This document shows, piece by piece, positions 18,350 to 18,577 of a stretch of DNA of 37,730 nucleotides (position 1 is the first letter of the stretch; each line of letters begins with the position of its first letter). Below the pieces are notes generated by a model that did not search any database, was not told where the DNA came from, and worked only from the letters and a program-made list of their open reading frames with translations. Location: NCBI RefSeq assembly GCF_003334785.1, contig NZ_QOWV01000026.1; one strand, written 5' to 3'. A program made the position numbers and the translations under genes. Source of the DNA: Escherichia coli. GTDB lineage: Bacteria; Pseudomonadota; Gammaproteobacteria; Enterobacterales; Enterobacteriaceae.

Positions 18350-18351
18350 AA

Positions 18352-18377
18352 AAATGGCACTTTATAAAGCGCCATTT
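18352..18377 (+). terminator. hairpin just after the yddM stop (one mismatch in stem)
   Basis: aaatggcac / tttataaa / gcgccattt; sequence closely resembles the second hairpin at 18529-18556. Confidence 0.4.
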
Positions 18378-18401
18378 AGAACTGATGACAAACGCAACAT
18401 T

Positions 18402-18500
18402 GCCTGATGCGCTACGCTTATCAGGCCTACACGTTCACTGCAATCTATTGGATTTGAAGGGTTTTCATGCCGGATAAGGCGTTCACGCCGCATCCGGCAT
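18402..18500. repeat. pair of REP elements (BIME-like) in the yddM-fdnI gap
   Basis: gcctgatgcgctacgcttatcaggcctac and atgccggataaggcgttcacgccgcatccggcat match the canonical REP palindromes. Confidence 0.7.
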
Positions 18501-18528
18501 GAACAAAGCCTACGTTGTCTACAATATG

Positions 18529-18556
18529 AAAATGGCGCCTTTTACAGCGCCATTTT
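18529..18556 (-). terminator. bidirectional Rho-independent terminator downstream of fdnI
   Basis: Perfect 10-bp stem aaaatggcgc / cttttaca / gcgccatttt with A-run and T-run on either side, 22 bp past the fdnI stop. Confidence 0.65.
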
Positions 18557-18577
18557 CAGCTTAAAGTTCAAAAGAGA

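Follow-up and report, generated by a model that had tools for sequence, protein, structure and literature searches.

Two hairpins of nearly the same sequence lie in the spacer between the converging genes yddM and fdnI of Escherichia coli, with a pair of REP sequences between them. How did one short spacer come to carry the same stem-loop twice? Is the structured RNA that would be copied from it, long listed as C0362, a small regulatory RNA or something simpler? We consider these questions in a window of 37,730 nt, by which we mean the whole stretch of DNA that was analysed. Its sequence is that of an E. coli strain other than K-12. The + strand carries maeA, adhP and yddM, in that order, convergent on fdnI, fdnH and fdnG on the - strand. 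A sequence-only reading of the window had named the genes on either side yddM and fdnI, and both names agree with the ORF table and with annotated, matching E. coli records. The features that concern us are as follows.

18065-18349, + strand: yddM, a HigA-family antitoxin-like regulator of 94 amino acids (ORF table, and annotation in matching E. coli records)
18351-18377, no strand assigned: hairpin 1, the left copy, AAAATGGCAC/TTTATAAA/GCGCCATTT, directly abutting the left end of BIME-1
18361-18568, - strand: the segment equivalent to C0362, 208 nt here against 386 nt in K-12
18378-18528, + strand: BIME-1, complete, 151 nt, comprising left outer motif, Y REP, L linker, Z1 REP and right outer motif
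18401-18430, + strand: Y-type REP, in inverted orientation and ending in CTAC
18431-18467, no strand assigned: L linker, matching the conserved linker pattern
18468-18499, + strand: Z1-type REP, with an extended stem at 18464-18503 and a fold of -29.4 kcal/mol
18529-18555, no strand assigned: hairpin 2, the right copy, AAAATGGCGC/CTTTTACA/GCGCCATTT, directly abutting the right end of BIME-1; the fdnI-proximal terminator
18578-19231, - strand: fdnI, the gamma subunit of formate dehydrogenase-N and the last gene of fdnGHI

The stop codons of yddM (18347-18349) and fdnI (18578-18580) leave a spacer of 228 bp between them. Hairpin 1 starts 2 nt past the former and hairpin 2 sits 22 nt past the latter. 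Mechanical open reading frames run over the interval on both strands (18262-18477 and 18315-18407 on the + strand, 18362-18493 and 18103-18375 on the - strand). They had been dismissed as spurious, and since about 45% of E. coli genomes lack the entire segment, real genes are indeed unlikely here.

The look-alike hairpins had been placed at about 18352-18377 and 18529-18556, within a nucleotide of where we find them, and they do bracket a REP pair, with Y REP, linker and Z1 REP in between. A repeat search scores them as a direct repeat of 34 nt with 82% identity and a spacing of 178 nt, and also as an inverted repeat. The two agree at 28 positions in 34, whereas the best 34-mer repeat reached 23 in 34 when the region was shuffled 1000 times. 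Compared with 200 dinucleotide shuffles, each hairpin has the better fold every time (-10.2 to -20.8 kcal/mol depending on strand, z -3.8 to -6.2). The duplicated core is a direct repeat of 27 nt, and the 151-nt element plus one 27-nt repeat makes up the 178-nt period. We considered the hairpin as part of a dispersed repeat and rejected this, as it is specific to the fdnI/yddM locus, with a median of 1 place per genome and a maximum of 4. Both copies are G+C-rich stem-loops just after a stop codon, as looked for in a terminator (-10 to -21 kcal/mol). The description of the pair as terminator hairpins holds as far as their form is concerned, but they are not two independent structures; they are very probably two copies of one ancestral terminator.

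The segment between them, with a Y and a Z1 REP in inverted orientation, is a BIME-1 element and lies between the two stop codons, outside the genes. Its linker fits the pattern AGGCCTAC-N8-TGCAAT-NN-ATTG-N-ATTTG. The window copy can be aligned from one end to the other with 14 further BIME-1 copies, giving a consensus of 152 nt that reads GAGACTGATGACAAACGCAAAA...Y...L...Z1...AACAAAGCGCACTTTGTCAACAATCTG. The termini lie at fixed offsets from the linker, -45 and +72, and the consensus ends are inverted with respect to each other, GAGACTGATGACAAA matching CAGATTGTTGACAAA at 12 of 15 positions. The outer motifs flanking the REP pair to the left and right are dispersed repeats, with medians of 13 and 3 places in an E. 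coli genome, and are found even in genomes that have no element at yddM/fdnI. The window contains a second REP pair, at 35605-35690; it has a short linker, is not a BIME-1, and shows no flanking-hairpin footprint.

A GTAG tetranucleotide 5′ of a REP is needed for binding and cleavage by TnpA-REP (PMC3333891). The position expected to read GTAG 5′ of Z1 is CATG in the window copy, whilst Y keeps the complementary CTAC. The window copy is therefore probably no longer a TnpA-REP substrate and immobile at present. Searches against Rfam, at permissive E-values on the region and at the gathering threshold on the whole window, gave no small RNA family at the interval. The region returned only sub-threshold, REP-derived matches, naRNA4 at 35.7 bits and ES036 at 30.9 bits, the latter falling on the L linker. 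The SECIS of fdnG was found in the whole-window search, as expected.

Could the REP pair act mainly on the DNA or the nucleoid, through IHF, gyrase or a naRNA-like RNA with HU, the hairpins being incidental? The BIME-1 linker commonly carries an IHF site (PMC3333891), and the partial match to naRNA4 points the same way. In the window, however, the putative IHF core (18441-18453, - strand, ATCCAATAGATTG), as read from the sequence, agrees with WATCAANNNNTTR at only 7 of 9 specified positions. The match to naRNA4 falls far short of the threshold and extends over a single hairpin; a 2026 preprint reports that the nucleoid is not compacted by REP325 and naRNA4; and the element is dispensable in about 45% of strains. 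We regard such a role as very unlikely to be the main one here.

The spacer was compared across 5426 complete E. coli genomes, which fall into discrete length classes. The counts are approximate and, the collection being biased towards clinical and laboratory strains, they do not represent population frequencies. About 2070 genomes carry one 178-bp unit, as does the window, about 917 carry two or more, and about 2440, or roughly 45%, lack the element and have a single hairpin. The single-hairpin allele has a 50-bp spacer, AAAAAAATGGCGC-TTCTTAAA-GCGCCATTTT, and no REPs (genomes L003, L009 and L010). The spacer in the window equals this 50 bp plus 178 bp. The allele of K-12 MG1655 differs from that of the window in having two units, its 406-bp spacer being 50 bp plus 2 × 178 (356) bp, and Tandem Repeats Finder describes the array there as period 178, 2.2 copies and 95% matches. 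A three-unit allele was predicted beforehand and built in silico, and the construct has perfect 884-bp matches in at least 12 genomes, including those of ETEC H10407 and Stbl4 (spacer 584 bp in Stbl4). BIME-1 is thus present once in the window, twice in K-12 and three times in Stbl4 and H10407, and the 178-bp units, head to tail and numbering 0, 1, 2 or 3 per strain, form a variable-number tandem repeat. In about 5% of all genomes, all within the single-hairpin class, an IS200 stands at the foot of the hairpin (for example L004).

The hairpin loops differ, being TTTATAAA in hairpin 1, CTTTTACA in hairpin 2 and TTCTTAAA in the single-hairpin allele. In O157:H7 hairpin 1 bears a loop of the hairpin-2 type, as expected if this allele arose by contraction from two units. 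Hairpin 2 has been lost in a laboratory-derived strain (L008).

Is a hairpin on either side of the element peculiar to this locus? Metagenome contigs were scanned with the BIME-1 linker pattern, which gave 100 usable elements at 24 distinct loci. At each locus the 45 nt outside the left end were aligned to the 45 nt outside the right end, and 552 pairs of flanks from mismatched loci served as controls (mean score 12.1, 99th percentile 20, maximum 24). Eleven of the 24 independent loci gave flank scores of 24 to 50, nine of them above every control. At these 11 loci the repeat is 13-28 nt long and lies 0-2 nt from both ends of the element. Its sequence differs from locus to locus, and each time it is a stem-loop spanning the repeat from foot to foot. 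The other 13 loci have no detectable repeat on both sides; they include truncated elements and elements with a hairpin at one end only. Converging open frames enclose 17 of the 24 loci.

Empty sites were compared with the filled span of 612 bp at four loci besides fdnI/yddM.

yqeB/arcC: element in 1649 of 5426 genomes; empty span 433 bp; difference 179 bp
metE/ysgA: element in no E. coli, in a related organism instead; empty span 440 bp; difference 172 bp
uspB/pitA: element in 1940 of 5426 genomes; empty span 439 bp; difference 173 bp
ymdF/rutG: element in 1734 of 5426 genomes; empty span 438 bp; difference 174 bp

All four empty alleles have exactly one hairpin between the convergent genes, and the length differences of 172-179 bp are close to 152 nt plus one copy of the repeat. 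With fdnI/yddM included, the empty site carries one hairpin at five of the five loci tested.

These results bear on the simplest alternative, namely that the hairpin was duplicated independently of the BIME, either by a tandem duplication into which the element landed later or through convergent likeness of two terminators. Terminator hairpins are short and alike in composition, and tandem duplications are common. Against this, the repeats lie within 0-2 nt of the BIME ends at 11 independent loci where each hairpin is different, the mismatched-flank controls fall below the scores observed at nine loci, and all five empty sites carry exactly one hairpin. In addition, searches of E. coli genomes at yddM/fdnI revealed no allele with two hairpins and no BIME. 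We consider this explanation largely refuted, and the least probable of those discussed here.

What can be read directly from the genomes and contigs compared is the anatomy of the spacer, the duplicated hairpin, the alleles with no unit or several, and the recurrence of the footprint at other BIME-1 loci. With good confidence, we take the hairpin pair to be one shared ancestral terminator that was duplicated by insertion of the 151-nt BIME-1, the locus varying thereafter by the 178-bp unit. The convergent units yddM and fdnGHI would originally have had one bidirectional intrinsic terminator between them, consisting of an A-tract, a GGCGC stem and a T-tract. A BIME-1 with its Y REP, IHF-type linker, Z1 REP and conserved inverted ends would then have inserted at the shared hairpin, and the insertion would have duplicated the whole 27-nt stem-loop to give hairpin, BIME-1, hairpin. 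With the stem-loop duplicated, each gene would have kept a terminator copy beside its stop codon. From then on the two hairpin copies would serve as direct repeats of 27 nt, and the 178-bp unit would be gained or lost between them through unequal recombination or slippage during replication, hence the series of zero to three units.

The chemistry of such an insertion can be sketched. Single-strand transposition of the IS200/IS605 type, which has been linked to REPs, is not known to duplicate its target. The feet of the stem, distant from each other in duplex DNA, would come to lie side by side once a hairpin or cruciform is extruded. If strand transfer took place at both feet and the gaps were then filled in, the stem-loop would be duplicated. 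That BIME-1 in general integrates specifically at terminator-type hairpins, mostly those of convergent genes, guided by structure to the stem feet and duplicating the hairpin, is a proposal we make tentatively, rating its chances slightly short of even. Excision by TnpA-REP cleavage at the C/T junction inside the element ends was also considered and rejected; it would leave GAGACTG between the hairpins, and this is not seen in the empty sites.

Related organisms give some indication of the direction of change. In Citrobacter sp. FP75 (L021) and NCU1 (L025) fdnI is followed by a single AAAATGGCGC...GCGCCATTTT hairpin, lying directly against yddM in the first, with yddM about 100 nt further on in the second. 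Other Citrobacter species have the hairpin and a single REP. Escherichia sp. MOD1-EC7003 (L012) has a single hairpin with the loop TTCTTAAA, as in the single-hairpin alleles of E. coli. The order hairpin, BIME, hairpin is found in E. albertii (L013) and in a divergent genome labelled E. coli (L016). The linker in E. albertii is the unusual one seen in the window, so the two copies probably derive from the same old insertion. From the state of the hairpin in these outgroups we infer that the ancestral arrangement at fdnI/yddM was one shared bidirectional terminator.

Within E. coli the polarity is left two-way because no two of the three loops, in hairpin 1, in hairpin 2 and in the single-hairpin allele, are the same. 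The single-hairpin alleles may be ancestral ones that were retained, or they may go back to old excisions. In the reverse history, hairpin-BIME-hairpin would be ancestral in E. coli and its close relatives, and the single-hairpin alleles would be precise excisions by recombination between hairpins. The filled form is present in E. albertii, in L016, in CFT073 and in O157:H7, and several losses of C0362 were inferred by Skippington and Ragan (PMC3318445). Contraction does occur, as the loop of O157:H7 hairpin 1 indicates, and the laboratory-derived L008 is without hairpin 2. However, the loop TTCTTAAA, common to all single-hairpin alleles, is not a chimera of the present hairpin 1 and hairpin 2 loops; the same loop is present in Escherichia sp. 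MOD1-EC7003; and Citrobacter has single hairpins. We judge the reverse history the less probable course, though one that deserves serious weight. It concerns history only, and the origin of the duplication by insertion at a shared hairpin is the same either way.

What would the two terminator copies do for transcription? Reading from fdnI, hairpin 2 comes first, with -20.8 kcal/mol and the tail UUUUCAUAUUG. Hairpin 1, which the terminator scan picked up, follows 178 nt later with -13.2 kcal/mol, a G.U pair and a U7 tail. Reading from yddM, hairpin 1 is weak, with -10.2 kcal/mol, an A.C mismatch and the poor tail UUUAGAA, and hairpin 2 is moderate, with the tail UUUUCAGCUU. As judged from these values, fdnGHI transcripts would stop mostly at hairpin 2 and those that read through would stop at hairpin 1, which would leave them with some 180 nt of 3′ tail that includes the REPs. 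It is plausible that read-through from fdnGHI yields 3′ tails whose end is at the second hairpin.

fdnGHI is little expressed aerobically and is expressed in anaerobic nitrate growth. A sigma-70-like promoter was sought at 17900-19300 with a promoter scan, which is a weak test, and none was found. The Term-seq tables consulted from Adams et al. 2021, which cover aerobic growth only, list no 3′ end in the interval (15519xx-15524xx in K-12). For the yddM strand the same source gives a Rho score of 9.25 at K-12 1551885 (-), 106 nt into antisense fdnI, with 71 reads upstream and 10 downstream in untreated cells and 89 and 116, respectively, with bicyclomycin. A Rho-dependent drop inside antisense fdnI is a hint of leakage at the hairpins on that strand, and these tabulated values suggest that the hairpins are leaky there and that transcription crosses all of them under Rho inhibition. 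The RepRanger supplements do not mention the fdnI/yddM locus, and a literature search for fdnI named together with yddM found nothing relevant.

C0362 was reportedly named in an array survey of K-12, the original papers being, it is said, Tjaden 2002 and Hershberg 2003. Its earlier placement between fdnI and yddM proved correct: the insert described in PMC4606813, mapped on K-12, occupies 1552001-1552386 on the fdnI strand. This insert, cloned by Bak et al. in 2015, begins with AACTTTAAGC, 10 nt beyond the stop codon of fdnI, and ends in the loop of the last hairpin (PMC4606813). Since K-12 has two tandem 178-bp units, the 386-nt C0362 is the whole array, of which the window carries one of the two repeat units. 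The annotated ends of C0362 are the ends of the intergenic spacer and not mapped RNA ends. The hairpins end at +40, +218 and +399 of the K-12 C0362, and overexpression from a plasmid gave products of about 200 and 230 nt, not 386 nt (PMC4606813). Bands of this size fit a stop at the middle hairpin, as judged from the hairpin positions.

The sequence-only reading had gone further, suggesting that the interval yields a stable small RNA derived from the fdnGHI 3′ UTR. In that account C0362 would be a discrete regulatory RNA, cut from or terminated in the 3′ UTR and protected by the hairpins and REPs. EcoCyc does list C0362 as a small RNA containing REPs, and in the same source its function is reported as unknown (PMC12306157). 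Position and strand match, RNA of the fdnI strand would be highly structured across the region (-91 kcal/mol, z = -6.1), and REPs stabilise upstream RNA (2026 preprint). Set against this, the sequence consists only of a dispersed repeat and duplicated terminator copies; it has no Rfam family and no promoter-like site (the weak scan noted above); and no RNA gene is annotated in the interval in the copy of NC_000913.3 that was consulted. Conservation among close relatives is poor, the segment being absent from about 2440 of 5426 genomes and present in 0-3 copies, and Skippington and Ragan found C0362 to be variable among strains and inferred repeated loss (PMC3318445). Overexpression gave no scored phenotype and products of the wrong size (PMC4606813), and the aerobic Term-seq tables consulted place no 3′ end in the interval. 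The suggestion of a stable small RNA thus finds little support, and we think a discrete regulatory RNA improbable. We read C0362 as fdnGHI read-through or 3′-tail RNA lying between duplicated terminators and not as a small RNA gene.

Much of this was already known, namely the genes, the REPs, the BIME-1 class and its presence/absence polymorphism, and the C0362 label. The fdnI/yddM locus by itself is ordinary, neither its genes nor its repeat nor its candidate RNA being new. It is the generality of the footprint that is worth following. REP and BIME elements are the most abundant repeats in E. coli. A 2026 preprint reports 78 REPs within 306 bidirectional terminators located between genes that converge, a statistical association, and describes REP insertion as ‘semi-random’, the mechanism not being established. 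Our literature search, which stopped short of the older BIME papers, found no description of a host hairpin duplicated at both BIME-1 ends, and it is possible that the flanking duplication was described in those earlier papers (Gilson 1991, Bachellier 1997, Boccard and Prentki 1993).

Conserved ends, two host terminator hairpins and single-hairpin empty sites together amount to a testable target rule. The footprint would explain why BIME-1 is sited at 3′ gene ends and in the spacers of convergent gene pairs, why it is tolerated there, in that both genes keep a terminator, and why it is present or absent among strains, or expanded in tandem as at fdnI/yddM. If true, hairpin-targeted integration would be a previously unrecognised insertion signature and a handle on how REP elements move, and the duplicated hairpins would be direct repeats that later drive excision and tandem amplification. 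The locus also carries a warning that small RNAs called from intergenic array signal, such as C0362, may be read-through between duplicated terminators.

How does the element compare with known systems? In common with BIME-1 as described (RIP/RIB), it has inverted Y and Z1 REPs, an L linker, a length of about 150 nt and conserved outer motifs. It also shares with that class an extragenic place at the 3′ ends of transcription units and presence/absence polymorphism among strains (PMC3333891, PMC1187871). BIME-1 is described as single copy per locus (PMC3333891), whereas at fdnI/yddM it is in tandem together with a terminator copy, with 2-3 units in K-12 and others. The window copy also differs from the class in having no GTAG 5′ of Z1.

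REPs ‘do not display MITE signatures’ according to a review (PMC3184786). BIME-1 resembles MITEs in its terminal inverted repeats (12 of 15 positions), in the host direct repeats that abut it and in empty sites with one copy of the repeat. It differs in that the duplication is variable, 13-28 nt, and comprises a whole host stem-loop, not a fixed few bases, and in having no cognate transposase known.

A preference for stem-loops or 3′ ends is shared by IS200/IS605 and the REP-associated Y1 transposases, by class C group II introns and by IS1397, which inserts in REP loops. BIME-1 is alike in target, and the IS200 at the foot of the single-hairpin allele stands at this very hairpin. Those elements are not known to leave more than a few duplicated bases, if any, whereas BIME-1 sites show the whole hairpin duplicated. 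In spacer integration by Cas1-Cas2, both ends of a palindromic repeat of about 28 bp are attacked on opposite strands and fill-in duplicates the repeat; in E. coli IHF takes part. The BIME-1 case differs in the absence of cas genes, in the length of the insert, 151 nt as opposed to 33, and in its targets, which are unrelated terminator hairpins. Cas1-Cas2 was considered as the integrase and, given the length of the insert, kept as an analogy only. As such it is the nearest one we can offer for the duplication of a whole hairpin at the two ends of BIME-1.

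The gene yddM, annotated as encoding a HigA-family antitoxin, differs between strains on its upstream side. In CFT073 and A21 a RelE/ParE-family toxin gene lies directly upstream, and in U12A this toxin gene is frameshifted (comparison loci L005, L007 and L009, positions 1-166 of each). The gap between adhP and yddM is just 145 nt in the window (17920-18064), as in K-12, which leaves yddM an orphan antitoxin here. Adams et al. 2021 report a Term-seq 3′ end at K-12 1552652 on the minus strand, about 30 nt into the yddM reading frame, a strong signal with a score of about 29,000. 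The corresponding feature in the window is a hairpin:

about 18083-18105, plus strand: hairpin CCCCGCCCGGGGG followed by ACAUUAUU, at the site of this 3′ end

The hairpin could represent the adhP terminator or an attenuator that overlaps the start of yddM. The same study places a Rho-dependent termination region (Rho score 9.25) on the yddM strand at K-12 1551885 (minus strand), within antisense fdnI, a position equivalent to approximately 18685 in the window. Transcription from the yddM side thus seems to cross the entire yddM-fdnI spacer and then to be halted by Rho within antisense fdnI.

Further variants were observed at the fdnI/yddM terminator. In strain WP4-S17-ESBL-08 (L004) an IS200 element, 1651-2365, is placed exactly between the yddM stop codon and the A-tract that marks the foot of the single terminator hairpin, and this insertion has left the hairpin unduplicated. 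IS200 occupies the foot of the single hairpin in about 5% of E. coli genomes and, judged from its position, this Y1-transposase element has chosen the same hairpin foot as BIME-1. In the laboratory-derived strain EC0026B_R1 (L008) a 34-bp deletion between short GAAA repeats has taken out hairpin 2, the fdnI-proximal copy of the terminator; BIME-1 and hairpin 1 are retained. Escherichia sp. MOD1-EC7003 (L012) carries an additional reading frame of about 560 bp (3152-3710) between the single fdnI terminator hairpin and yddM; this frame is absent from E. coli.

The number of 178-bp units also varies. Stbl4 (L091, 351-934), whose genome is 4.55 Mb and whose record gives neither host nor source, has three compared to two in K-12 MG1655 (L002), and its array is 100% identical to a synthetic triple made from the K-12 sequence. 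Should Stbl4 be a cloning strain derived from K-12, the copy number of the array would have altered in the recent history of that lineage.

Elsewhere in the window two REP sites and one Rfam match are assigned:

35605-35690: short-linker pair of Y and Z REPs, flanked by two converging reading frames
13648-13684: single REP
22528-22586, minus strand: SECIS_3 (84.3 bits)

Neither REP site has duplicated flanking hairpins. The SECIS_3 match, the only one above the Rfam gathering threshold in the whole window, corresponds to the fdnG element for selenocysteine insertion and explains why the mechanical ORF list breaks that gene at the in-frame UGA.

Other BIME-1 loci inform on the fate of the hairpin copies. 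In the filled alleles at yqeB/arcC, uspB/pitA and ymdF/rutG (L188, L190 and L103) one copy is identical, or nearly so, to the hairpin of the empty site (L212, L214 and L215), whilst the second has drifted, through a point change, the loss of 4 nt from the loop or several substitutions or other changes in the stem. The retention of one copy and drift of the other suggest that constraint was relaxed on one hairpin following duplication.
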